DNA from: an uncultured Thermoanaerobaculia bacterium
Lineage (GTDB): Bacteria; Acidobacteriota; Thermoanaerobaculia; Multivoradales; CAZRFU01
Assembly: GCA_964599475.1 (NCBI GenBank)
Contig: CAZRFU010000016.1
Location: 17,619 to 81,618, forward strand
Length of the DNA: 64,000 nt
Direction: 5' to 3'
Shown here: one piece after another, positions 1-13,121 of the stretch
Numbering within the stretch: position 1 is the stretch's first letter
Layout of the letters: every line of letters starts with the position of its first letter
Notes under the pieces: model-generated
Told to the model about the DNA's origin: nothing
Database searches by the model: none
The model's input: the letters and a program-made list of their open reading frames with translations, nothing else
Position numbers and translations under genes: made by a program

Positions 1-1498
1 TGCGCGCGAGGTCCTCGAGGAGGGTGTCTCACGGATTGATCGAGCACTCGGCGATCAGCCCGCGGTGGCTGCCGACCTCTACGACGCCCTGGCCGAGATT
101 TACCAGCGCCTTGGCCTGGGAGCTCAGGGCCTCGATCTCGCCCAACGTGCCTTGGCGCTGCGCGAGCGAGAGCTCGCACCCGACCCGGCCAAGATCGGGG
201 AAACGCTGACCCGGATTGCCGCGCTCCAACTCGAGGGCCCGGAGCCGGCGCAGGCCCTTGCAGGTGCACACCGTGCGTGGTCGTTGCTGAGTCGCGAGCT
301 GGGCGAGGACAGTCTCGAGGCAGCACGCGCGGAAAGTGAGCTCGCTGCGGCCCTGATCTGGGCGGACCGCGCCGAGGAGAGCGTGGCCCATCACCAACAC
401 GCCTTCGACGTGCTCAGTGCCCTCCTGGGCCCCGACGATCCTCGCACCGCCGCACAGCTGGTGGCTTTGGCTCGTGCCCTCGAACAAGCGGGCCGGTACG
501 AGGACTCGATCGCTGCATTTCGGCAGGCCCTGCCGGCGCTCGAAGGAGCCCTCGGCGACCTCCACCCGGATGTCTCCTACGCGCGCCGGGATCTCGCCGG
601 GGTGCTCGATCGGGTCGGACGGCCCGCCGAAGCCGAGCCGCTGCTCGAGGCGGCGTTGGCGGCGCAACGCAAGGTGCTCGGGAACGACCACTGGCAAGTC
701 GGCGAAACTCTCTTCTCCTACGGCATTCTGCTCAACACCGCCGGACGTTTGCAGGAGGCGGAAGCTGCCTTCCGCGAGGCGCTGGCGATCGACGGCCCCG
801 CCACCCTCGCCGCCCACTGCCTGCGCTTCCTCGGCACCAACCTGGCCGAGCAGGGGCGCCTCGACGAGGCGGTCGAGAGTCTCGAATCGGCGATAGCCGA
901 GTACCGTCGTGTCGAGGGCCTGGACTCGACCGAGGCCTGGCGTGCGGTCGCCAGCCTCGGCCACGCCCACCTGCGCGGCGGGCGGGTCGAGCTGGCCCTC
1001 GCCACCCTGCGCGAGGCGGTGGCGCGGCTGGAGGAGCTGGCCGGGCCCGAGAGCTACCAGGTACGGATGCCGCTGCGCCAGCTCGGTGAGAGCCTGCGGT
1101 GGGCCGGCGAGCTCGAGCAGGCGGTTGCGGTGTTGCGCCGCACCCGCGCCCTCGAGGTCACCCTCTTCGGCACCGAGGACCATGGCGACATCGCCCTGAC
1201 CGATCTCCAGCTCGCGCGAACGCTGTTCGCCGTCGGGACCAAACCCGCACGCGAGGAGGCAAGCGCCCTGTTCGACGAAGCGATCGAGCTGCTGCGGCGC
1301 CACAAGACTCGCAGTGCCAGTCTCGGCGAGGCCCTGCTGGAGCGCGAGCGGCTCAGGCTCGCGCTGGGTGCCCCGGCGATCCGAGCCAACCTCGCCGAAG
1401 CCGTCGAGCGGCTGATGAGTGCCTACGACGCCGACGACCCCCGCACCCGCGAAGCTCGGGCCCTCCTTTCCGGCTCCGACCCGACCGCCAATCCCTGA
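1..1498 (+). CDS. TPR-repeat protein, 5'-partial (reading frame open to window start). Likely the C-terminal sensor domain of a third Ser/Thr-kinase paralog of the 6974 and 10109 genes
   Basis: ORF 65..1498 translation is all TPR_12-like repeats (AxxLxxLAxxyxxxGRxxEA) and resembles the tails of kinases at 6974 and 10109; frame is open back to nt 2. Confidence 0.6.
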   Translation, partial: AREVLEEGVSRIDRALGDQPAVAADLYDALAEIYQRLGLGAQGLDLAQRALALRERELAPDPAKIGETLTRIAALQLEGPEPAQALAGAHRAWSLLSRELGEDSLEAARAESELAAALIWADRAEESVAHHQHAFDVLSALLGPDDPRTAAQLVALARALEQAGRYEDSIAAFRQALPALEGALGDLHPDVSYARRDLAGVLDRVGRPAEAEPLLEAALAAQRKVLGNDHWQVGETLFSYGILLNTAGRLQEAEAAFREALAIDGPATLAAHCLRFLGTNLAEQGRLDEAVESLESAIAEYRRVEGLDSTEAWRAVASLGHAHLRGGRVELALATLREAVARLEELAGPESYQVRMPLRQLGESLRWAGELEQAVAVLRRTRALEVTLFGTEDHGDIALTDLQLARTLFAVGTKPAREEASALFDEAIELLRRHKTRSASLGEALLERERLRLALGAPAIRANLAEAVERLMSAYDADDPRTREARALLSGSDPTANP

Positions 1499-1627: not shown

Positions 1628-3157
1628 ATGGTCTCCGAACGAGCACCACGTCACCTCGCGCGTCACCTCGCGGGCGCATTGACGATTTTCGCCGCCGGCA
1701 GTGTCTCAGCCCAGGAGATCGGCGTCGACGACTTTCGCATCAGCGCCATGGGAGGCAGCGGAGATAGTGCCTACACGGCGATCTACTCGTCGGTTGCCCA
1801 CAACCCCCTCGCCGAGGAGTACCTGGTGGTGTGGCTCGGCGACACCAACACCGGCGACGGCGACAACCACTACCAGATCTTCGGGCAGCGTATCGACGTC
1901 GCGACCGGTGCCGAGCTCGGAACCGACGACTTCGTGATCGCAAGCCTCGGCGGCCCCTTCGGATCGGCGCCGTTCGCCTGGGTGACGGTGGCTCACGGCT
2001 CCGGCCAGAACGAGTACCTGGTCGTGTGGTCGACGATCACCGGGCTCGGCAACGGCAGCGACTACGAGATCTTCTGTCGTCGCGTCGCCGCCGACGGCAC
2101 ACCCCTCGGCGTCGCGCTCCAGATCAGCCACATGCACAACCCGACCCAGCCGCAGAACGAGAGCCAGTACACCGCCACCGAGCCCGCCGTCGCCTACAAC
2201 CCGCTCGCGGACGAGTTCCTGGTGGTGTGGGCGGGCGACCATGGTGTCGGCGGACTGGTCGACGAGGAAGTCGAGATCTTCGGGCAGCGCATCAGTGCCA
2301 CGACCGGCCTCGAGATCGGCACCGACGACGTGCGCATCAGCGACGTCGGAGGCACCGGCAGTACCTTCTCGGATGCCCGCTCGCCCGACGTCACCTACAA
2401 CTCGATCGACGACGAGTACCTGGTGGTGTGGGCCGCCGACGATCCCGATGCGGGCACGGCCGACAACGAGCTCGAGATCTACGGGCAGCGCCTGACCTCG
2501 CTCGGCGGCGAGATCGGCGTCAACGACTTCCGCGTCACCACCCATGGCCCCGCCAACGAGCCGGGCTACTCCGCGCTCGAGCCCGCGGTCGCCTTCAGCC
2601 CGGATCACTCCGAGTACCTGGTGGTGTTCAGCGCACCCGAAGCCTGGTCGCAGGCGGTCGGACCCGGCTTCGAGATCTACGCCCAGCGTCTCGACGCGAG
2701 CGCAAGCGCACTCGGCGGCGCCTTCAGGCTGAGCGATGTCGGCGGCCTGGCGGAGCTCGCTTTCGACGCCGACACCCCCGATGTCGCCTATGCCCCGGCT
2801 TCGGAGCGCTGGATCGTCGTCTTCCGAGCCGACGACAACGTCGGCGGGCAAGTCGACGGCGAGCGCGAGGTCCACCTGCAGGAGGTCGATGCGGCAACCG
2901 GCGCCGAGGTCGGCGACAACGACGCCCGCGTCAGCGACATGGGCCCCACCGGCAGCACGATCTACCAGACCTCACTGCCCACCGTCGCTTGCGCCGCTGC
3001 GACCGAGTGCCTGGTGATCTGGCGCGGCGACGACAACGTCGGCGGCCTGGTCAACGACGAATTCGAAATCTTCGGCCAACGCTGGGCAACCACACTGCCG
3101 GCCTCGATCTTCGAGGACGGGTTCGAAAGTGGCGACACCTCGGCGTGGAGCCTGTAG
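1628..3157 (+). CDS. secreted repeat protein, seven tandem ~58-aa repeats (motif YNPLxxEYLVVW.GD...EIFGQRI), signal peptide, C-terminal DGFESGDTSAWSL tag
   Basis: ATG at 1628 preceded by AAAGGAG; N-terminus MVSERAPRHLARHLAGALTIFAAGSVSAQE looks like a Sec signal; repeated E[YF]LVVW / EIFGQR motifs in the translation; ends FEDGFESGDTSAWSL*. Confidence 0.7.
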   Translation: MVSERAPRHLARHLAGALTIFAAGSVSAQEIGVDDFRISAMGGSGDSAYTAIYSSVAHNPLAEEYLVVWLGDTNTGDGDNHYQIFGQRIDVATGAELGTDDFVIASLGGPFGSAPFAWVTVAHGSGQNEYLVVWSTITGLGNGSDYEIFCRRVAADGTPLGVALQISHMHNPTQPQNESQYTATEPAVAYNPLADEFLVVWAGDHGVGGLVDEEVEIFGQRISATTGLEIGTDDVRISDVGGTGSTFSDARSPDVTYNSIDDEYLVVWAADDPDAGTADNELEIYGQRLTSLGGEIGVNDFRVTTHGPANEPGYSALEPAVAFSPDHSEYLVVFSAPEAWSQAVGPGFEIYAQRLDASASALGGAFRLSDVGGLAELAFDADTPDVAYAPASERWIVVFRADDNVGGQVDGEREVHLQEVDAATGAEVGDNDARVSDMGPTGSTIYQTSLPTVACAAATECLVIWRGDDNVGGLVNDEFEIFGQRWATTLPASIFEDGFESGDTSAWSL

Positions 3158-3254
3158 CTCGGCGACGCTGGGTTCCGCGGCGTGTTGCTCGACCCGCGTG
3201 CAGCGCCATGGTCGGCGCAATGACGCCGCGCTGGGCAACCGGCCTGCGGCCCAC

Positions 3255-4789
3255 TCACGGCACGGTGTTCGACCACGCCCAGGTGTTGCCAGTCTCGAAA
3301 CCGTCGGCAAAGAACCACGGGCAGCCGCCCGCGGTGTGCTCGACCGAGCCCATGTCGTTGGTGCCGTTGCCCTGTGGCCGCAACACGCCACGCTGATCCA
3401 TGAAGGTATTGCCGCCCGCGAGAGGGATCCCAGCGTCGATCGCCGGGCTGCTCGGGCTGAGATTGTGGCTGCGGGTGAGCTCCTCGGGGATCCCGACCGG
3501 GCAGGAAAAGCCGAGGGGCAGGATCTGGGCGTCGGTCTCGGGTTTGTTGCCGTTGGTCGCAAGCTCGCCACAGCTGATCCCAGACCACAGGCTCGCGCCG
3601 ATGTCCACTGCGGCGCCGCCTGCGATCGAGCACTGGTCGCCGCTGTCCGTTGCGCTGTTCAGAGCCCAGATCACGTTGCGGGCGTGCAACGTCGAGCCGA
3701 TCGCCCCGGTCGTGACGCCACCGCCAACGGCGGCCTGATTGTTGGCGATCGTGGTCATCCGCAAGGTCAAGGCGCCTTCGTTGTGGATACCACCACCCGA
3801 GCCGGCGCTGGTGTTGCCGGAGACCGTCGTGTTCTCGAGCTGGAGGGTCCCGAGATTGGCGACGGCGCCACCTCTCGCGGCGGGATCGCTCGCGACGTTG
3901 CCCGAGAAGGTGGACTCGCGCTGGAGCGACGATGACCCCGCTGTGATGAAGAAGCCCCCTCCCTCGGCGGCAGCATTGTCGGCGACCGTATCCCGGCTGA
4001 GTGAAACGCCGGAGGCGTTCTGCAGCAACACGGCGCCGCCCTGGCCGGCCGCCACGTTGAGCACGAACGAGCTCAGATCCAGAAAGCCCGAGGCGCTCGT
4101 GGCACGAACCGCACCGCCATCGCCACCGGCGGTGTTGTTGTCGAACGAGGATCCAAACACCGCGAGCTGGGTCGTGTTGGCGACATCGAGCGCGCCGCCA
4201 TGGCCAACTGCGGTGTTGTTGGTAAGGATGGTGCGGCTCAGGTCCACCCGCCCGCCGATGGCGGCGATGGCTCCGCCGTCGCCGTTGGCGTGGTTGCCGG
4301 CAAGAGTGCTCCACAGAGCGTGGACCACGCCACCACTCGCGAGCACGGCGCCGCCACTCCCGGTGGAGGTGTTGTTGGCCAGGATGGCTCGGTCGAGCTC
4401 GAGGTCACCACCGGGCTCCACCACCCCGCTCCACCGCCCGCTGCAACGCCGTCGACGAGGAAGATCTCTCGCATCGTGGCGACCGCCGCAGCGGCGACCA
4501 CGAAGTGCCGCGTCGTGCCGCCACCCGACAGTGTCACCTTGTTGTCCCCATCGAAAACCACGAAGGCCGTGATCGGCTTGGCGGCGGTCAGGGTGATCAC
4601 GATCGGGTCGGGGCCACAGTCGAAGGTGATCGTGCCACCGCCGGCGTGCGCCGTCGCGATCGCGGCATCAAGGTGGGACTCGGTGCATCCTCCAGGCGAG
4701 CCGTCGCCGACGACGGCGTTGGCGCCGAGGACCGGAGGGACGGCGAGCAGCAAGCAGAGGGTGAGGCAAGGGAAGTCGCGAGGTTTCAT
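3255..4789 (-). CDS. Pmp-repeat (GGA[IVL]) right-handed parallel beta-helix secreted protein with CSLREA-like N-terminal motif and C-terminal DGFETGNTWAWS tag; reading frame broken near 4420-4432 (G-run), so possibly a pseudogene or sequencing error
   Basis: ORF 4238..4789 (signal peptide MKPRDFPCLTLCLLLAVPPVLGANA, motif GCTESHLDAAIATAHAGGGTITFDCG) and ORF 3255..4424 (NNTxxGxGGA repeats, tag FADGFETGNTWAWSNTVP*) align collinearly to the paralog at 4786..6309. The two frames join if one G is added to the GGGG run. Confidence 0.6.
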
Positions 4790-6309
4790 GGCGTAGTCGA
4801 GCTCCAGGAGTTGGTGTTGCCGAGATCAAAGTCGTCGGCGAAGAGGGCGAAACAGTCGCCGGCCTGGTACTCGACCGCCCCAACGTCACAGCCAAGGCCC
4901 TGGGGCCGCGGGACGCCACGCTGGTCGACCTGCGGGGCCAGGGCACAGGAGGCCGCGTCGATCGCCGGGCTCGTTGCCTCGATCGCGTGGGTAGGGGTTC
5001 GTTCGGTTGCCAGTCCAGTGCAGGTCCTCGCCAGGGCGGCGATCCCAGGATTGGTGTTGGGTTGGTTGCCGCTGCTCGTGCCGGTACCGCAGGTCGTGTC
5101 GGACCAGATGCTGAAACTCAGCCCGAGCGGCGCGGCGCCGAAGTTGCACTGCGAGTCGACAAGGCCGTTGTTGGATCGGTTTGCAACCAAGAGGCTGTTG
5201 TGGATCTCGAGCAGGCCGGCAGGCAAGTTGTCGATCCCGGCGCCGGGGTCGCGTGTGACGTTGCCGACGATCGTGCTGTTGACCACCATGGCGGTGCCAC
5301 TGTTGCTGAGGCCACCGCCCCCCAACGCCCAGTTGCCGGAAATGGTCGCGTTCTGCAGGGCCAGCGTACCGAGATTTTCGATACCGCCGCCGATCACCGC
5401 GCTGTTGCGCGACACCGTTGTCGATATCACCACGACCTGCGATGGCGTGTTGACTCCGAGTCCACCGGCGAGACCGGCCGAGTTGTTGGCATCGAGCCAG
5501 GAGTCGGTGATCGTGACGTCGCTGCCATCCCACACGTAGAGCCCACCCGCCTCAGCCGCGTCGTTGCCCCGGATCAGCACGCGGGTGAACTGGGTGAAGA
5601 ACGCGCCGCGCAGGGCGACTCCTCCGCCGGCGCCGCCGGCCGTATTCCCCTCGATCCGGCTGTCGATCACACCGACATTCGAAAACCACGCTTCGACGGC
5701 GCCCCCATCGGTTCCGGCGCCGTTGCCGGTCATCGTGCTCGATTGCACCACGAGGCCGCCGGGATAGAGGTTGATGCCACCTCCTCCTCCGACAGCCTCG
5801 TTGTCGCGGACATGGCTGTCGACGAGGGAAACGAAGAGATGGTTGCCGGCGATCGCACCGCCCCAGGAGGCGGAGATGTTGTCCTCGAGGGTCACCCCCT
5901 CGAGATGCAGTTGCACCGCAAGGTCGAGGGACGGGGCGGGAGCCCAGATCGAACCGCCGGGTGAGGCGCTCCCGAGCGTCAGGGTGAGATTGCGCAGCGT
6001 CACCTCGCTGTCGTCGAGAAGGCGAAAGTGCCGCGTGGCAAGGCCTCCGGAAAGGGCGATCAGATTGCCACCATCGATCGTGACCTGGTCGCCGAGGACC
6101 TTTTCGCTGGTGAGCACGATGGCGTGGGGAGCCGGCCCACAGTCGAAGGTGATCAGGCCGCCTCCGGCGTTGGCGGAGGCCACCGCCGCCGTCAAGGCCG
6201 CCTCGGTACAACTTGCAGACGATCCGTCGCCCACCACGGCGTCGGCGCCGTAGGTCGGCGCGACCAAGGCCACGGCGGCGGGAAGTACGAGCTGATGAAC
6301 CAGGCGCAT
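4786..6309 (-). CDS. Pmp-repeat parallel beta-helix secreted protein (paralog of 3255..4789), CSLREA-like N-terminus, C-terminal DDFDLGNTNSWS tag
   Basis: Start taken at internal ATG 6309 (MRLVHQLVLPAAVALVAPTYGADA signal peptide, AGGAGG RBS upstream) rather than ORF start 6369; GGG[AG][IVL] repeats; stop TGA overlaps ATG of the downstream gene (ATGA at 4786-4789). Confidence 0.75.
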   Translation of the reverse strand: MRLVHQLVLPAAVALVAPTYGADAVVGDGSSASCTEAALTAAVASANAGGGLITFDCGPAPHAIVLTSEKVLGDQVTIDGGNLIALSGGLATRHFRLLDDSEVTLRNLTLTLGSASPGGSIWAPAPSLDLAVQLHLEGVTLEDNISASWGGAIAGNHLFVSLVDSHVRDNEAVGGGGGINLYPGGLVVQSSTMTGNGAGTDGGAVEAWFSNVGVIDSRIEGNTAGGAGGGVALRGAFFTQFTRVLIRGNDAAEAGGLYVWDGSDVTITDSWLDANNSAGLAGGLGVNTPSQVVVISTTVSRNSAVIGGGIENLGTLALQNATISGNWALGGGGLSNSGTAMVVNSTIVGNVTRDPGAGIDNLPAGLLEIHNSLLVANRSNNGLVDSQCNFGAAPLGLSFSIWSDTTCGTGTSSGNQPNTNPGIAALARTCTGLATERTPTHAIEATSPAIDAASCALAPQVDQRGVPRPQGLGCDVGAVEYQAGDCFALFADDFDLGNTNSWSSTTP

Positions 6310-6392
6310 TGGGTTTCCTCCTCGAGCTGCTATTGGCTCGAACGGGAAATCGAGGGAGAAAGCGGACATGGCGCCCCTGCTAACATCTCCGC

Positions 6393-6968
6393 GTGTCAGC
6401 TCCCATCCCGGCCGGCGACCTCACCGCCCTGATCGAGGCTTGGGATGGCGGCGCGGGGGTGCCGGTCGACGAGCTGTGGCAGGCTGCCTATGCCGAGCTC
6501 AAAGCGCTTGCACGCTCGCGACTGCGGCGCCAGGGACCCGTGACACTGCTCGACACCACCGCTCTGGTCAACGAGAGCTACCTGCGGCTGGTGGGCGTCG
6601 GCCGCCTCCAGGTCGAGACTCGCGGCAAGTTCTTCGCCTACGCCTCGCGCGTGATGCGGTCGGTAGTCGTCGACCTCGCGCGCGAACGACTCACGACACG
6701 GCGTGGTGGCGGTGCCGAGGCGGTCACCTTCGACACGGACGCCGTCGACCGCCTGCAGTTCCCGGCGCTGGCCGAGCCGCTCGATGTCGATGCGGTGCTC
6801 GCGGAGCTGGAGGTGGTCGACCCGCGACTCGCGAAGGTCGTCGAGATGCGCTATTTCGCGGGCTACACCGAGGTCGAGATCGCGACGATCCTCGGCCTCA
6901 CCGAACGCACGGTACGCCGCGACTGGCACAAGGCGAAGCTGCTGCTGCGCACGATGATCGTTCGCTGA
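6393..6968 (+). CDS. ECF-type RNA polymerase sigma factor, kinase-associated subgroup (TIGR02999/ECF43-like)
   Basis: GTG start; sigma-2 region LVNESYLRL and sigma-4 region YTEVEIATILGLTERTVRRDWHKAKLLL; immediately followed by a Ser/Thr kinase gene. Confidence 0.8.
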   Translation: MSAPIPAGDLTALIEAWDGGAGVPVDELWQAAYAELKALARSRLRRQGPVTLLDTTALVNESYLRLVGVGRLQVETRGKFFAYASRVMRSVVVDLARERLTTRRGGGAEAVTFDTDAVDRLQFPALAEPLDVDAVLAELEVVDPRLAKVVEMRYFAGYTEVEIATILGLTERTVRRDWHKAKLLLRTMIVR

Positions 6969-6973
6969 GGCCC

Positions 6974-9334
6974 ATGAACCGCCTACCATGCTCACCCGGC
7001 CAATGGCCCGAGCTCTCGCGGCTACTCGACGAGGCGCTCGAAAGTCATCAGCAGGATCGAGGAATATGGCTCGAGCGCGTCGGCCGAGAGCGGCCGGACC
7101 TCATCGAGGCCCTGCGAACGGTGCTCGAGGCCGAGGTAGGCGAGCAGGCCGATGCCGCCCAATTCGAGTCCCCGTCCTGGGATCTCCTCGATGACGAGGA
7201 TGCTCTTGGCCAGGGAACCGTCGTCGGGCCCTACACGCTCGAAGCCGAGTTGGGAGTGGGCGGGATGGGGACCGTCTGGAGCGCCCACCGCAGCGACGGC
7301 GCGTACCAACGCCGGGTTGCACTCAAGCTGCCCCACCTCTGCGGGCCGGGGGCGGATCTCCGGGCTCGGTTTCGGCGCGAGCGGGACATCCTCGCCCGGC
7401 TGTCGCATCCCAACATCGCGCAGTTTCTCGACGCCGGCGTTGCTGCCGACGGGCGCCCGTATCTTGCACTCGAGTTGGTCGAGGGGCGGTCGATTCTCGA
7501 GGCTGCTGGGTGCGCTCGGCTCAGCGTCGACGGGCGCTTGCGGTGGTTCCGGGCGGTGCTCGACGCCGTCGCCTACGCCCATGCCAGGCTCGTGGTCCAC
7601 CGCGACATCAAGCCCTCCAACGTCCTGGTCGGCGCCGCCGGCTCCGTCAAGCTGCTCGACTTCGGGATCGCCAAGCTGCTCGAGCCGACCGCCTCCGAGC
7701 GCGGCGGCGCCGCGCAGCTCACCCGCGCGGACGTCAGACCAGCGACTCCCGACTACGCCGCTCCCGAGCAGCTCGACGGCGGTGATGTGACCGTGGCGAC
7801 CGACGTGTGGGCGCTCGGTGCGCTGCTGTTCGAGTTGCTGACCGGTGGCCGACCTTTCTCCCGCGCCGAGCGTCTGAGTAGCCAACGCGACCGCTTCGTA
7901 CCGTTCTCCTCGCGCCGCGTCGACCCGACGCACGCTCGGGCGTGCGGCTTGTCGACGAAATCCCTCGCCAGGCGACTCGAAGGCGATCTCGACGCGATCC
8001 TCGCCAAAGCTCTCGCTTTCGAGCCGACCGATCGGTACGCCTCGGTCGAGGCATTCGCCGGCGACCTCGACCGCCACCTTGCTCTCCAGCCGATCGTCGC
8101 GCGGCGGCCGAGCGCATTGGTGCGGGCGCGCCTGTTCGCGCGCCGTCACCGAGTCGGACTGGTGTCGTTCGGCCTCCTCCTCGCGTCGGTGACCGCAGGC
8201 ATGCTCGGGGTACTGCTGCAGGCCCGGGCGACCTCGGCGGCCGCCCGGCGCGCCGAAGCGACCAAGGACTTCCTCGTCGAGGTCTTCAAAGGCAGCGACC
8301 CGCGGGTTGCGCGCACCAAGCCCCGCGGCGAGATCACCGCTCGAGAGCTGCTCGACATCGCGGCTCACGATCTCGAAGTCGGGTTCGAGGATGATCCCGA
8401 GACCCGGATCGAGCTGTTGGGGCTGACCGCCACGATCTACACCTACCTCGACGAGATCGGTGCCGCACGGAGGCTGGCCGAGATGGGACGGCTCGAGGGG
8501 CAGCGCCTGCTCGAGGCCGACGATCCTCGCCTGCTCGACCCTTGGCTTCTCGAGATCTGGCTTGCCCTCGAGGCCGGGGACCTCGAGTCCGCGCGGACAC
8601 GGCTCACCGAGGTCGACCGACACCTTACGGTCTACGGGCTCGATCACACGGTCCACCGCGCCGGTTACCACCTGGCCGCCAGCGACATCGCTGCGGCGCA
8701 GGGCGATCGAGACGGCCGGAAGCAAGAGCTCGAGCAGGCCCGGGCTCTTTATGCTGCGGTGGCTCCACGCGACTCAGGGCATGCCGCAGCGCTGTCGAAT
8801 CTCGGCCTGTTGCGTCTGGGGGGTGGTGAACCCACGGAGGCTCTGACCCTGCTCGACCGCGCCCTGACGGTGGCCCAGACTGCCACCAGCGATGTGGGTA
8901 CCGACCTCGCCCGGATTCACGCTCGTCGAGGCCGGGTGTTGCTGGAGCTCGCGCGCTTCGAGGACGCCCGGGAAGCGCTCGACACGGCTCTGGCGCTGTA
9001 CGCCGCGACGGTCGGCACAGACCATGTGACCACCTGGGCCCCGCGCGCCGCCCGTGCCCGAGCGGCAGCCTACCTCGGCCAAGCCATCGACGCCGACCGC
9101 GACCTCGGTTCTCTCGAAAGCCTCCCGGGCTGGCAGGAACCGCGTTTCTCGCGCTACCGTCAGGAGGCCAACTTGCACCGCGGCCTGGCTTTGGCCAGAC
9201 TCGGTCGGCAGCCACAGGCTGCGGCGATTCTCGCCGAGAGCGTCGCAAGCCTGGGCGACGATCCCGAGCTCGAAGCCGAGATCCGCTGGGCTCGGCTCGA
9301 GATCGCAAGCACCCGGTCCGACGCAGGTGGATGA
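6974..9334 (+). CDS. Ser/Thr protein kinase (PknB-like) with one TM helix and extracytoplasmic TPR sensor domain
   Basis: ATG 6974 is 5 nt after the sigma stop; GxGxxG (ELGVGGMGTVW), VALK, HRDIKPSNVLV, DFG, APE motifs; TM LVSFGLLLASVTAGMLGVLL; TPR repeats to the C-terminus. The supplied ORF 6368..9334 is an artefactual extension through the sigma gene. Confidence 0.85.
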   Translation: MNRLPCSPGQWPELSRLLDEALESHQQDRGIWLERVGRERPDLIEALRTVLEAEVGEQADAAQFESPSWDLLDDEDALGQGTVVGPYTLEAELGVGGMGTVWSAHRSDGAYQRRVALKLPHLCGPGADLRARFRRERDILARLSHPNIAQFLDAGVAADGRPYLALELVEGRSILEAAGCARLSVDGRLRWFRAVLDAVAYAHARLVVHRDIKPSNVLVGAAGSVKLLDFGIAKLLEPTASERGGAAQLTRADVRPATPDYAAPEQLDGGDVTVATDVWALGALLFELLTGGRPFSRAERLSSQRDRFVPFSSRRVDPTHARACGLSTKSLARRLEGDLDAILAKALAFEPTDRYASVEAFAGDLDRHLALQPIVARRPSALVRARLFARRHRVGLVSFGLLLASVTAGMLGVLLQARATSAAARRAEATKDFLVEVFKGSDPRVARTKPRGEITARELLDIAAHDLEVGFEDDPETRIELLGLTATIYTYLDEIGAARRLAEMGRLEGQRLLEADDPRLLDPWLLEIWLALEAGDLESARTRLTEVDRHLTVYGLDHTVHRAGYHLAASDIAAAQGDRDGRKQELEQARALYAAVAPRDSGHAAALSNLGLLRLGGGEPTEALTLLDRALTVAQTATSDVGTDLARIHARRGRVLLELARFEDAREALDTALALYAATVGTDHVTTWAPRAARARAAAYLGQAIDADRDLGSLESLPGWQEPRFSRYRQEANLHRGLALARLGRQPQAAAILAESVASLGDDPELEAEIRWARLEIASTRSDAGG

Positions 9335-9451: not shown

Positions 9452-10057
9452 TCAGCCTGGGCGTGGTTCGAATCCGGTCAGCTCGAGATGCAACATCGCG
9501 CGAGCGGCCCGCCAGTCGCGCTTGACCGTCCGCAGCGAGACCGCTGTCGCATCGGCGATCTCCCCAAAGGTCAGCCCGCCGAAGAAGTGCCACTCGACCG
9601 TTTGGGCCAAGCGCGGGGCTGCGAGCTCCAGACGAGACAGGGCAGCATCCAGCGCCAAGAGATCTTCGATCGGGGCCGACGTGCCCGGCGCTGCGACGGC
9701 GATGGCGTCGAGGTCGATCTCAGGCTGACCACCACCACGTTTGCCTGCCTGGCGCCCGCGCGCGCGGTCGACCACCACGTGGCGCATCGCGCGCGAAGCC
9801 ACTGCGAACAGGTGTTGACGATCTTCGAATGGTAGCGCCCCTCGGCGCGACAGCCGCAGGAACACTTCGTGCACGAGCGAGGTGGCGGACGGCCCCGCAA
9901 CTTGGGCCCGCAGGTGGCGACCCGCCAAGGCCCGGAGGTCGGCGTAGATCAGATCGAACACCTTGCCTGCAGCATCGCGGTCGCCGCCGCGAGCGGCTGC
10001 CAGGAGCGCGGTCACGGCGCCCTGGTCGCCTTCGGGGGAATCGCCGGCCGCACCCAT
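9452..10057 (-). CDS. ECF-type sigma factor (second copy, same kinase-associated subgroup)
   Basis: C-terminal 201 aa of ORF 9452..11290(-): VHEVFLRL, LTFGEIADATAVSLRTVKRDWRAARAML; ATG at 10055-10057. The remainder of that ORF is antisense to the kinase gene. Confidence 0.75.
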   Translation of the reverse strand: MGAAGDSPEGDQGAVTALLAAARGGDRDAAGKVFDLIYADLRALAGRHLRAQVAGPSATSLVHEVFLRLSRRGALPFEDRQHLFAVASRAMRHVVVDRARGRQAGKRGGGQPEIDLDAIAVAAPGTSAPIEDLLALDAALSRLELAAPRLAQTVEWHFFGGLTFGEIADATAVSLRTVKRDWRAARAMLHLELTGFEPRPG

Positions 10058-10108
10058 TCCGAAGATTCTAGCGCCGCGTCCGACATCTCCTGTAGCGTTG
10101 CCGCACCG

Positions 10109-13072
10109 ATGGCCACCTCCCGGCAGGAAGAGCGAGCGCGCTGGTTCGTCGAGCTGTGCGACCTCGAGCTGCGGGAGCGTGACCGGGCTCTCGAGGAGAT
10201 CGCCGCGAGCGATCCCCAGCTGGCGGCCGAGGTCGAAAGGCTGCTCCGCCTCGATCGGCAATCGAACGGGCCGATCGAAGCCCTGCGCGAGGAACTTGGA
10301 CCGGCCCTGCACTCGGCGTTTTCCGAACTGGAGGTGGCAGACCTTGCGCCGCCGGAACGGCTCGGCCCGTGGCGCCTGGGCGAAAGACTCGGTGCGGGCG
10401 GCATGGGCGAGGTCTGGGCCGCCGAACGCGCCGATGCCGGCTTTGCCCAGCGCGCTGCCATCAAGCTGGTCCGCTCGAACATGGCGAGCGAGGAGGTGGT
10501 GCGCCGCTTCGCCATCGAACGCCGGGCTCTCGCACGGCTCGAACATCCCGGCATCGCCCGGCTGCTCGACGGCGGTGTCGCTCCCGATGGTCGCCCGTGG
10601 TTCGCCATGGAGCGGGTCGACGGCATCGCGATCACGACCTTCGCCGACACCAACGCACTCGACCTCGGGTCGCGATTGCGACTCTTCCTCGCCGTCATCG
10701 AGTCCGTCGCCTTTGCTCACCAGGCGCTGGTGGTCCATCGCGACCTCAAGCCCTCGAACATCCTGGTGACCGCGGCCGGCGCGCCCAAAGTCCTGGACTT
10801 CGGCCTGGCCAAGCTGCTCGACCCGGCGGAAGGCAACCAGGACCAGCCGGAGCTCACGCACACCAACCTGCTGGCGCTGACCCCGGCTTACGCCGCTCCA
10901 GAGCAATTCCTCGGCGAGCCGACCACCACCGCAACCGACGTCTACGCCCTGGGCGCGGTTCTGTTCGAGCTCCTCACCGGGCAATTGCCGCACCAGCGGC
11001 GAAGCCCTTCGCTCGCCGTGCTGCTCGAAGGGCTCGAGCGCGAGACCCTCGAGCGCCCTTCTCAGCGCCTCAGGCGTTCGGCTGCCAGCGAACGCCCGGA
11101 TCGAGCCGCCAGGCTGCTCGAGGGAGACATCGACACCATCGTGCTGCAGGCTCTCGCCCGCGAACCGGCCCGCCGCTACCCAACCGTGGCGGCGCTCGGC
11201 GCGGACATCCGCGCCCACCTCGAAGGGCGGCCGATCGCGGCACGGCCGGCCTCGGCCTTCTACCTCTTCTCCAAGTTCCTCGGGCGGCACCGAGCGGCGG
11301 CGATCGCTGCGCTGACCGTGGTGTCGGCCCTGAGCGTCAGCCTGATCGTCTCGTTGCAGCAGACTGCGGTCGCTCGCGCCGCCCTCGCCACGGCACAGAG
11401 CGAGGCCCGGCGCGCCGAGAGGGTCAAGGACTTCCTAGTGTCCGTGTTCGAACAGGCCGACCCAACCCACACCCAAGGAGCCGACGTGCCGGCGCGACAG
11501 ATCCTCGCCGAGGGCGCGGCCCAGCTGAGGACCAACCTCGCCGACGAGCCCGAGGTCCGCGCCGAGCTCTACGACACCGTCGCGCAGATCCAGACCAGCC
11601 TGGGATTGCTCGAAGAGGGGCTGGCCAACGCCGAAGCCGGCGCCGCAGAGCGCAAGCGGCAGTTCGGTGACAGCTCGCGCGAGTACGCCCGCAGCCGGGT
11701 GACGGTGGGCCGGGCCAAGCTGCAGCAGGCCCAGTTCGCTGGCGCGCTGGAGGACTTCGACCATGCCCTATCGGTGTTCGAAGCCAGGGTGGATACCCGC
11801 TCGCTCGACTTCGCGAAGGCACTCTCCGGTCGGGCCGAGGCCCGTCTGATGCTTGGCGACCCGGAGCAGGCGCGCACCGATCAGCTCGCCGCCAATGCGA
11901 TCTATGCCGCGGCCCTCGGGCCTGAGGATCGGGAAACCCTCGGCCAGCTCTCGAATCTCGCCGTGATCGAAACCCGGTCCGGAACCGTCCTCGAGGCCGC
12001 GCGGATCTTCCGCCAGGTGCTGGCCGGCCTCGAACGCGTCGAGCCCCCGGACTCGGCACGTGTGCTCGATGTCGTCCTCAATCTCGCCACCGCCCTCGAC
12101 ACCGCCGGCCAGAGCACAGAGGCCTTGGCGCTGTTCGAACGCGTCGTCGCCGGTCGCCGGAGGATCTACGGGGACCAACACCCCCTGCTTGCCGAAGCGC
12201 TGGTGATCGCCGGGCTCAGGATGTCGCGAGCCGGCCGTGGCGACGACGCACTTCGAGCGCTCGACGAGGCCCGCGCGATCTACGCACCGCTCGATCACCC
12301 GGAGCTCGGTACCGTCGACAACTTCAGCGGCCTGACCTACGCCGACCTGGGGCGGTTCGCCGAAGCCGAGGCGGCGTTCGCGGCAGCGTCGGCTCGGTTC
12401 TCACGGGACCTCGGCCCCGCGCACGTGATGACGGTTTCCGCCAACGCCAATCGGGCCAACGTGGTGAGTGAGCTCGGTCGCGAGGACGAGGCAGTCGAGC
12501 TGTTCGCCGAGGCGGTCGCCCAGCTGCGTGTGCTCCAGCAGCTCGACAACCCGAGGCTGTTGCGCATGCGACTGAACTGGGGAGCGGCGCTGCGCCGCGC
12601 CGGACGCTTTGCCGAAGCGCGGTCGGTGCTGGAAGCCGCGATGGCGGCCGCGCGCGAGCAGTTCGGAGGCGACCATCTGCGCATTGCCGAGGGCTCGGTC
12701 GAGCTCGCCCGCCTCGAGCTGGCTGCGAGAACGTCCACCGCTCCCGAGGTCGCTGCCTCACTGCTCGCCGAGGCGGAGCGGATCGCCGAGAACAACCCGC
12801 CCAACGCCGCCTTGGCCCGCAATCTGGCGGCAGCGAGGGCGGAACTGCGGGAGGCAAACGGTTCCTCGGCACCCATCACGGCCCCGACCACCCTGCCATC
12901 GACCCCGCTCGAACCCGTCCGAGAAGATCAGGCCATTGTCGAGGCTGGGGGACGGGCTCTACCATCTCCTGGCGTGCGGCGCGATCGAGGTGGAGATCAG
13001 CTCCGGCTCGGTGTCCGCGGTAGACGTCTTCGCCGACCGGCTGCGATTCGAGCTGCTGGATCTGCTGCGTGA
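10109..13072 (+). CDS. Ser/Thr protein kinase with TM helix and long extracytoplasmic TPR domain. The 3' end is uncertain: a G5 run at about 12945 separates it from a tag-encoding frame
   Basis: ATG 10109 (MATSRQEERARWFVELCDLELRER...); ELGAGGMGEVW, AIK, HRDLKPSNILV, DFG, APE; TM AAAIAALTVVSALSVSLIVSL; TPR repeats; divergent from sigma gene 9452..10057. Confidence 0.8.
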   Translation: MATSRQEERARWFVELCDLELRERDRALEEIAASDPQLAAEVERLLRLDRQSNGPIEALREELGPALHSAFSELEVADLAPPERLGPWRLGERLGAGGMGEVWAAERADAGFAQRAAIKLVRSNMASEEVVRRFAIERRALARLEHPGIARLLDGGVAPDGRPWFAMERVDGIAITTFADTNALDLGSRLRLFLAVIESVAFAHQALVVHRDLKPSNILVTAAGAPKVLDFGLAKLLDPAEGNQDQPELTHTNLLALTPAYAAPEQFLGEPTTTATDVYALGAVLFELLTGQLPHQRRSPSLAVLLEGLERETLERPSQRLRRSAASERPDRAARLLEGDIDTIVLQALAREPARRYPTVAALGADIRAHLEGRPIAARPASAFYLFSKFLGRHRAAAIAALTVVSALSVSLIVSLQQTAVARAALATAQSEARRAERVKDFLVSVFEQADPTHTQGADVPARQILAEGAAQLRTNLADEPEVRAELYDTVAQIQTSLGLLEEGLANAEAGAAERKRQFGDSSREYARSRVTVGRAKLQQAQFAGALEDFDHALSVFEARVDTRSLDFAKALSGRAEARLMLGDPEQARTDQLAANAIYAAALGPEDRETLGQLSNLAVIETRSGTVLEAARIFRQVLAGLERVEPPDSARVLDVVLNLATALDTAGQSTEALALFERVVAGRRRIYGDQHPLLAEALVIAGLRMSRAGRGDDALRALDEARAIYAPLDHPELGTVDNFSGLTYADLGRFAEAEAAFAAASARFSRDLGPAHVMTVSANANRANVVSELGREDEAVELFAEAVAQLRVLQQLDNPRLLRMRLNWGAALRRAGRFAEARSVLEAAMAAAREQFGGDHLRIAEGSVELARLELAARTSTAPEVAASLLAEAERIAENNPPNAALARNLAAARAELREANGSSAPITAPTTLPSTPLEPVREDQAIVEAGGRALPSPGVRRDRGGDQLRLGVRGRRLRRPAAIRAAGSAA

Positions 13073-13121
13073 CGGCTTCGAAAGTGGCGACACCAGCGCA
13101 TGGTCGCTCGCGGTGCCGTAG
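12930..13121 (+). other. orphan coding segment in the kinase +1 frame ending ...DVFADRLRFELLDLLRDGFESGDTSAWSLAVP* (fourth copy of the C-terminal tag)
   Basis: 18-nt identity (ttcgaaagtggcgacacc) with the tag-coding end of the 1628..3157 gene; reads cleanly only downstream of the G5 run. Confidence 0.45.

Follow-up and report, generated by a model that had tools for sequence, protein, structure and literature searches.

In this report, we describe a short peptide tag found at the C-termini of exported proteins, as it occurs in a stretch of 64,000 nucleotides (contig CAZRFU010000016.1, positions 17,619 to 81,618) from an uncultured Thermoanaerobaculia bacterium; the whole 64-kb stretch is referred to below as the window. 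A preliminary description, made from the letters alone and concerned with positions 1628-6309, had singled out three proteins that share such a tag, designated here P1, P2 and P3. The three open reading frames (ORFs) and their endings proved to be as described, and all three proteins have signal-peptide-like N-termini. Our main finding is that the tag corresponds to the first strand of a jelly-roll domain, and that a separate family of secreted proteins has the same domain without that strand.

P1 (1628-3157, plus strand, 509 amino acids) consists of a signal peptide, a seven-bladed propeller and the tag, and ends in IFEDGFESGDTSAWSL. Its orthologue P0072, modelled with AlphaFold2 from the family alignment, is a confident propeller, with a predicted local distance difference test (pLDDT) score of 89.6 and a predicted template modelling (pTM) score of 0.90. 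The tag copy of P1 (IFEDGFESGDTSAWSL; 3107-3154, plus strand) matches positions 1-15 of the jelly-roll hidden Markov model (HMM) described below; it stops at ...AWSL and the stop codon (window 3152-3157), three residues before the ...WSxxVP of the orthologues. The same early stop is present in P0001, a 99%-identical protein from an independent dataset.

P2 and P3 are both encoded on the minus strand and share 36% identity. The C-terminal part of P2 (3255-4424) contains Pmp/beta-helix repeats (Pfam Chlam_PMP and Beta_helix), a choice-of-anchor Q domain (3339-3476, minus strand; NF041518, residues 317-362, 44.7 bits for a cutoff of 25) and a tag copy (FFADGFETGNTWAWSNTVP; 3258-3314, minus strand) that ends the protein and matches HMM positions 2-18. 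Its N-terminal part, that is, the signal peptide and the first ~115 residues, lies in another frame, in an ORF (4238-4789, minus strand) that is 53% identical to the N-terminus of P3. P2 is thus interrupted by a frameshift, with G-rich runs at about 4405-4440, and is either a pseudogene or a gene whose frameshift comes from a homopolymer assembly error. P3 (4786-6309, or to 6369) comprises a signal peptide, a beta-helix, a choice-of-anchor Q domain (4864-4998, minus strand; NF041518, residues 458-502 of 527, 63.7 bits for the same cutoff of 25) and the tag copy that ends it (LFADDFDLGNTNSWSSTTP; 4789-4845, minus strand). The choice-of-anchor domains of P2 and P3 end 25-27 residues before the stop, directly ahead of the tag, and both scores exceed the curated cutoff.

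The whole window was scanned in six frames with the pattern D[DG]F[DE]xG[DNS]xxxW. Exactly four matches were obtained, each within 19 codons of a stop, and 300 triplet shuffles of the window gave none. The three tagged proteins of the preliminary description are therefore real, but their count was incomplete: a fourth copy (LLRDGFESGDTSAWSLAVP; 13062-13118, plus strand) lies outside the range it covered. P1 and the fourth copy have an identical peptide, DGFESGDTSAWSL, written with different serine codons. These differing codons rule out a recent DNA duplication as the source of the repeated tag, and indicate selection on the peptide.

When the analysis is extended to a wider set of proteins, the tag is 16-19 residues long (PLFADGFESGDTSAWSATVP, for example), and its consensus is [ILV]F-x-D-G-F-E-S-G-D-T-S-x-W-S-x-x-V-P-COOH; the motif first proposed, F-x-D-[GD]-F-[ED]-x-G-[DN]-T-x-x-W-S-x(0-2)-[VT]-P, was real, and is redefined by this set. 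Of 120 P1 homologues, 47 terminate in [LF]F-x-DGFESGDTS-x-WS-x-x-V-P, and in nearly all of these the F of FES sits exactly 14 residues from the C-terminus. A search with a profile of the tag only returned 313 short proteins or fragments; the 120 that were listed all end in the tag, and the sequences ahead of it are unrelated, including subtilase ends, LVIVD repeats, the galactose-oxidase C-terminal domain, InhA-like MAM and choice-of-anchor-Q-like segments. When 1.84 billion cluster representatives were searched exhaustively with an HMM, 7,381 proteins were obtained at E<=0.001, a number that takes in the internal motif copies of intact jelly-roll proteins. At the DNA level, at least 119 loci in species-representative genomes match a degenerate pattern for DGFESGDTxxWS. 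By record title, the matches listed belong to Thermoanaerobaculia (39 loci), Ca. Multivoradales, a group within that class (6), Sulfomarinibacteraceae (2), Holophagae (21), unspecified Acidobacteriota (34), and other or unclassified organisms (17). With 7,381 clusters and at least 119 loci, mostly of Acidobacteriota, the motif is not restricted to a few paralog-like genes, and we consider the existence and the distribution of the tag to be solid. The only cultured organism among the genome matches is Acanthopleuribacter pedis KCTC 12899 (L054, NZ_JAFREP010000021.1), where the motif starts a complete domain and is not a terminal tag; no cultured organism with a terminal tag was identified among the genome matches listed.

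As the genome scan selected on the motif core alone, it provides an unbiased test of where the tag resides. A stop is found exactly four residues after WS in 86 of the 128 genomic matches listed, and 11-19 codons from the motif D in 114 of them; shortened ends also occur. The carriers are very diverse: 84 tagged proteins from the genomic loci matched 52 Pfam families, led by Beta_helix (9), FG-GAP (6), Peptidase_S8 (6) and InhA-like_MAM (5), and including BNR, LVIVD, GSDH, cytochromes, M28, GDSL lipase and others, so that the presence of the tag on unrelated architectures, first noted for three proteins, holds at large. A signal-peptide-like N-terminus was recognized, with a crude heuristic, in 79 of 104 tagged ORFs. 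Immediate tandem duplicates of the tag are found at the C-termini of P0258, P0263, P0264, P0266, P0343 and P0352, and in one protein, P0274, the tag directly follows the N-terminal signal peptide. Such tolerance of tandem, N-terminal and shortened copies fits a binding peptide better than a cleavage signal that depends on the terminus.

The tag does not resemble known anchors. As stated initially, it is followed by neither a hydrophobic helix nor a basic tail, the proteins ending in ...xxVP/TP or shorter; a hydrophobic helix and basic tail were seen after the tag only in L083 and P0216. No model of Pfam or NCBIfam r20 covers it, either with full proteins or with tail-only queries at E<=10, so that it matches no sorting signal described there, and we found no description in the literature of the motif, of a sorting signal in these lineages, or of strand-complementation docking of this kind. 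We therefore regard the tag as undescribed. In P1 homologues of other lineages, the slot of the tag is occupied by tails of the type IX secretion system (T9SS; PF18962), by transmembrane (TM)-plus-arginine anchors, or by other short tails, among them the YLPLVLR, GGCSL and DAVTLxPLPP types. The first of these last three types, [LIVY]YLP[LV][VI][LVM][RK]x0-3 without a TM helix, is present in P0004, P0005, P0007, P0012, P0024, P0075 and others, several of them labelled Anaerolineae/Chloroflexi, while other homologues end in GGGCSLxx or DAVTLxPLPPxLx; the YLP-, GGGCSL- and DAVTL-type tails may be further undescribed C-terminal signals. That the tag serves for recognition by a dedicated extracytoplasmic partner, as first proposed, has good support in its spread, its unrelated carriers and its position in an anchor slot. 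The protease or transpeptidase expected as that partner, on the other hand, is not in evidence: within 8 kb of the 119 tag loci there is no recurrent protease, transpeptidase or secretion gene, and the only genes that recur are Ser/Thr-kinase/extracytoplasmic function (ECF) sigma factor pairs, GGDEF, ABC and sulfatase-family genes.

The origin of the tag became apparent from proteins in which the motif is internal. The top HMM matches contain several motif copies, spaced about 192-215 or ~290 residues apart, and in P0241, P0243 and P0252 the motif LFADGFESGDLSAWT/S opens a tandemly repeated domain, which aligns weakly in Pfam to positions 1-40 of Polysacc_lyase (PF14099) and to positions 3-46 of CBM_4_9. 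A jelly-roll HMM of 214 positions was built from 19 tandem units. Every terminal tag aligns to its positions 1-17/18, which identifies the tag as a jelly-roll's first strand and turn, occurring by itself. The intact domains of P0241, P0243 and the A. pedis locus L054 begin with the tag sequence, and in L054 the complete domain (HMM positions 1-206) follows the motif. A complete domain of ~200 residues is found only in these and similar proteins, whereas the tagged proteins hold positions 1-19 only. As judged from these profile alignments, the tag is the detached first strand and turn (positions 1-19) of a polysaccharide-lyase-like jelly-roll of ~214 residues. In the model of P0072, whose tag is complete, the last ~21 residues are not packed on the propeller and have pLDDT values of 58, 53 and 43; the best-conserved part of the family is thus predicted to lack structure when alone. 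Within our local data, no cargo family has both members with the full jelly-roll and members with the tag alone (the Rosetta-stone configuration), and no sequence relative of the intact domain unit, or of the family presented next, exists in the PDB.

The remainder of the domain is found on other proteins. At the tag locus L042, a gene (2209-2895, minus strand) encodes a protein of 222 amino acids that matches jelly-roll HMM positions 22-201 only: it reads MKRFVTLLAFAAILFVSTGAMA / ANTVAVTAQ..., with a signal peptide and then a jelly-roll that starts where the tag ends. Used as a database query, this protein retrieved 25 others of 210-241 amino acids, all with a signal peptide and all starting at HMM position ~21-22; strand 1 is present in none, and nearly all end in ...FDEFESFRTLAP. 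A metagenome scan adds 25 loci with the same organization, a signal peptide followed by HMM positions 21-201 without strand 1. As these searches were limited to words or patterns, the ~50 members recovered are a lower bound. We designate this family as the candidate acceptor. The split point is sharp: the canonical tag has its W at position 14 and its final P at 19, dedicated donors (see below) extend to 20, and 21 is the first position of the mature acceptor. The AlphaFold2 model of the acceptor is all-beta (pLDDT 81.5, pTM 0.75), and its best PDB matches are PL7, PL14, PL18, PL20 and PL36 lyases and a TtX122 domain (Foldseek probability 1.0, TM-score 0.5-0.58). Neither the acceptor nor the dedicated donor has a named family in Pfam or NCBIfam. 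Within the acceptor proteins (P0356-P0380), the most conserved segments are the N-terminal AALNGTNFGL and the last strand, and the pattern of the conserved C-terminus FDEFESFRTLAP, F-D-x-F-E-S ... T-[LV]-x-P, echoes that of the tag.

Every acceptor context examined includes sulfatase-family genes, mostly together with S-adenosylmethionine (SAM) methyltransferases and/or GT2/GT4 glycosyltransferases, and in some cases PMT_2 or AlgX-like genes as well. Taken with the polysaccharide-lyase fold, these surroundings suggest that the acceptor is probably glycan-associated. Sulfatase-family proteins of about 500-900 amino acids that end in ...L[KR][AS]LGYxx adjoin tagged and acceptor genes (L029, L057, L060, L085, L104; L141-L143).

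Several arrangements connect strand 1 with the acceptor. In about 11 metagenome loci a donor gene lies directly upstream of an acceptor gene; in L126, L129, L131, L132, L133, L134, L136, L151, L152 and L153 it is on the same strand, with a gap of 14-410 nucleotides. These dedicated donors are ~250 amino acids long, with a signal peptide in the complete copies, and every one terminates in the strand-1-like ...SxDCxD[LV]IFFDNFGTGDxxRWSxxxGS before the stop. An operon in L147/L148 encodes a sigma-70-family factor, a zf-HC2 anti-sigma factor and an acceptor whose start overlaps the anti-sigma stop; the short extracytoplasmic tail of the anti-sigma factor, ...LFMDGFESGKPDSWN..., is a strand-1-like motif. 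The L148 operon (5299-7389) resembles a possible split extracellular sensor. L141 (GC 0.69) unites, within 10 kb, an acceptor gene with two genes for canonical tagged proteins and two of the sulfatase family. Finally, both tags and acceptor were present in the three assemblies checked out of three, namely CAZMEL01 (tags L059, L077 and L098; acceptor L121), JAIOJQ01 (tag L033; acceptor L155) and CAXMQZ01 (tags L042 and L086; acceptor L042).

The fourth tag copy of the window brings in a membrane kinase. A gene at 10109-13121 (plus strand), belonging to a kinase family cluster, encodes a membrane-spanning Ser/Thr kinase (TM helix 11255-11356) with a TPR region outside the cytoplasm, and appears to end in this copy by way of a frame shift. 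The coding frame that starts at 10109 shifts at a G5 run (12947-12951), the signal from GC content at third codon positions switches at ~12900-12950, and the tag copy can be reached from this gene only through that frame change. The gene is either a true tagged kinase or a remnant; the 38 residues upstream of the tag had no match among the local sequences compared. The frame changes of P2 and of the kinase gene occur in G-rich runs, and both may be assembly errors. It would be unusual for a membrane kinase to carry a tag at its extracytoplasmic end.

The other neighbors in the window are as follows. An ECF sigma factor (6393-6968, plus strand; PF07638, E=2.5e-39) diverges from P3 and is paired with the Ser/Thr kinase-TPR gene downstream of it (6974-9334, plus strand), and a second ECF sigma factor (9452-10057, minus strand; PF07638, E=1.9e-36) is divergent from the tag-ending kinase. 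Two such PF07638 ECF sigma/Ser-Thr kinase-TPR pairs (6393-9334 and 9452-13121) thus flank the tagged genes, and a TPR_12 protein is encoded at the start of the window (65-1498). The ECF sigma/kinase-TPR arrangement recurs beside tagged genes of other genomes, directly adjacent in ~8. The region from 13 to 39 kb of the window contains housekeeping genes, without secretion or sorting genes.

How might a detached strand and a strand-less domain work together? The reading that we favor, tentatively and with a confidence slightly short of even, is that the tag is a donor-strand docking tag, which tethers exoproteins and the tails of some sensors to a shared, strand-deficient jelly-roll acceptor. 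In this scheme, the tag would be the first beta-strand and turn of the domain, placed at the free C-terminus of proteins exported by Sec and unfolded until insertion. It would insert into the separately secreted acceptor, the same jelly-roll without that strand, whose mature N-terminus is at position 21. The acidic D/E residues of the tag and of the last strand of the acceptor (FDEFES) may help to coordinate calcium. Many exoproteins would in this way be tethered non-covalently to one common and probably glycan-associated receptor, on the surface or in a matrix, and so would some sensor proteins, through their outer tails. Chaperone-free, calcium-assisted donor-strand complementation between extracellular beta-sandwich subunits has been described for archaeal cannulae (bioRxiv 10.1101/2024.12.30.630787). 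Docking would explain why the free tag is disordered, extremely conserved and terminated at the split point, why tandem and N-terminal copies are tolerated, and why there are an acceptor family and donor-acceptor operons. We infer the mechanism from these features, and with it the binding, the role of calcium, the localization, and the function of the Thermoanaerobaculia acceptor as receptor of the canonical tag.

Several observations weigh against docking. The acceptor is absent from the window and from 118 of the 119 tag loci, and no tagged gene was found within 8-10 kb of the Thermoanaerobaculia acceptor loci. The donors that do lie next to acceptors carry the variant DNFGTG, not DGFESG, and come from lineages of lower GC. 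Only ~50 acceptors were recovered by the word- or pattern-limited searches, as against thousands of tagged clusters. Shared ancestry could explain the co-occurrence in three genomes, which are not phylogenetically independent. The adjacency of a cytochrome gene and the acceptor in L042 was considered as evidence and downgraded, as it is absent from the close relative L140.

Docking has to be compared with three other readings. A serious rival, although in our opinion a rather unlikely one, would have the tag act at the C-terminus as an export or sorting signal, read by an outer-membrane machinery for secretion or processing. The tag would then follow the logic of the T9SS C-terminal domain (CTD) with a short peptide, and its likeness to strand 1 would reflect evolutionary origin only. 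The slot shared with T9SS tails or TM-plus-basic anchors in P1 homologues, the position directly after choice-of-anchor Q in P2 and P3, the strict terminal placement (86 of the 128 matches listed end four residues after WS), the restriction to certain lineages on many exoprotein families, and the signal-peptide-like N-termini of most tagged ORFs (79 of 104, by the crude heuristic) would all be expected of such a signal. This reading nevertheless leaves unexplained the complementary strand-less family and its synteny with tag-ending genes, as well as the lack of any recurrent secretion or protease gene near the 119 tag loci; moreover, N-terminal and tandem copies exist, and the tag also ends membrane-anchored sensors that are not secretion cargo, namely the L148 anti-sigma tail and probably the kinase of the window.

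In another reading, quite improbable as a full explanation, neighboring Ser/Thr kinases that control ECF sigma factors would sense the tag as a peptide ligand, by way of their extracytoplasmic TPR domains, and the tag would so signal the status of the envelope. TPR domains commonly bind free C-terminal peptides, and the C-termini of outer-membrane proteins that activate DegS, or PTS1 read by PEX5, are analogues. Ser/Thr-kinase-TPR and ECF sigma genes are present in 13-15 of the 119 tag loci (directly adjacent in ~8), two pairs flank the tagged genes of the window, and the window kinase itself appears to be tag-ended. However, this enrichment is modest and comes without a background estimate, such kinase pairs abound in these genomes, no kinase lies near most of the tagged genes, and the identity of the tag with strand 1 and the acceptor family are left unexplained. 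TPR sensing could coexist with docking as a regulatory layer. Lastly, we give little credence to a tag without partner, be it the vestigial stump of a lost C-terminal jelly-roll or carbohydrate-binding module (CBM) domain, or a self-sufficient calcium- or glycan-binding or protective cap. An intact domain does follow the same motif in L054, L044 and P0241, and the motif is rich in the acidic and aromatic residues that typify the calcium and sugar sites of jelly-roll folds. Yet thousands of unrelated proteins share twelve near-invariant residues while synonymous codons differ, the end point is precise, and the tag alone is duplicated in tandem; near-invariance, precise end and duplication indicate strong selection on a specific recognition event, and not decay.

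Acidobacteriota are among the most abundant bacteria of soils and sediments, and to our knowledge the way in which they export and retain large sets of hydrolases and adhesins is largely unknown. The tag marks thousands of their exoproteins and, as it escapes current sorting-signal models, localization predictors and annotation pipelines miss a whole class of surface or matrix proteins. If docking is true, a domain split between many cargoes and one receptor would be a new anchoring principle for diderm bacteria, would connect the exoproteome both with exopolysaccharide loci and with signaling through ECF sigma factors and Ser/Thr kinases, and would offer a natural peptide-protein pair usable in protein engineering. 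A more ambitious version, which we put forward as doubtful and still worth stating, is that Thermoanaerobaculia and Holophagae run a natural, proteome-wide 'tag-catcher', in which one secreted jelly-roll without its first strand, encoded in an exopolysaccharide-type locus, captures up to hundreds of exoenzymes and adhesins by a 19-residue strand, together with anti-sigma and Ser/Thr-kinase tails; the exoproteome would then be bound to a matrix in a cellulosome-like way, and its occupancy would feed into ECF sigma signaling.

Among known systems, the tripartite sorting signals (PEP-CTERM/exosortase, LPXTG/sortase, GlyGly-CTERM/rhombosortase, MYXO-CTERM/myxosortase and IPTL-CTERM) are similar to the tag in being short, lineage-specific C-terminal signatures on many unrelated exported proteins, in following choice-of-anchor domains, and in having multiple copies per genome. 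Unlike them, the tag has no TM helix, basic tail, curated-model match or known membrane sorting enzyme, tolerates tandem and N-terminal placement, and is in sequence a fragment of a folded domain. The T9SS CTD is also C-terminal and devoid of a TM segment on Sec-exported hydrolases and adhesins of diderms, and PF18962 tails alternate with the tag among homologues of the propeller protein; it is, however, a folded beta-sandwich of ~70-100 residues, whereas the tag has 16-19 residues, is modelled as disordered (pLDDT 43-58), and gave no PF18962 or TIGR04183 match in the Pfam and NCBIfam searches. Dockerins, like the tag, are small acidic C-terminal modules on many secreted enzymes, with a common receptor (proposed in the case of the tag). 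They differ in that a dockerin folds on its own, as a calcium-binding unit of ~60-70 residues, and binds a cohesin that is itself complete, while the tag would complete an incomplete fold; the dockerin repeat PF00404 had no Pfam match on tails or whole tagged proteins, and dockerin-cohesin systems belong to a lineage other than that of the tag.

In mechanism, the proposed arrangement comes closest to donor-strand complementation and to engineered split-domain tags. In donor-strand complementation, as in chaperone-usher pili and archaeal cannulae/TasA-type fibers, a strand of one polypeptide fills the groove of the beta-sandwich of another, and the same is proposed here. An acceptor that natively lacks one strand is what the acceptor family presents, at the level of profile and model, and the missing strand is indeed carried by other polypeptides, as tags at HMM positions 1-18 and as donor genes upstream of acceptors in ~11 loci. 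Known donor-strand systems polymerize like subunits into fibers, whereas here thousands of heterologous cargoes would be held by one small acceptor, and no usher, chaperone or fiber is evident. RsgI-type anti-sigma factors with extracellular carbohydrate-binding modules are reminiscent of L148, in that an ECF-type sigma/anti-sigma pair is coupled to a jelly-roll module of lyase/CBM-like type outside the membrane; in L148, by contrast, the anti-sigma factor carries strand 1 only, with the remainder of the module secreted as a protein of its own. In SpyTag/SpyCatcher and in strand 11 of split GFP, finally, a short terminal beta-strand peptide binds the rest of its parent domain in trans, as proposed for the tag. 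These split tags are man-made, and the Spy pair is covalent; the system considered here would be natural, proteome-wide, and presumably non-covalent.

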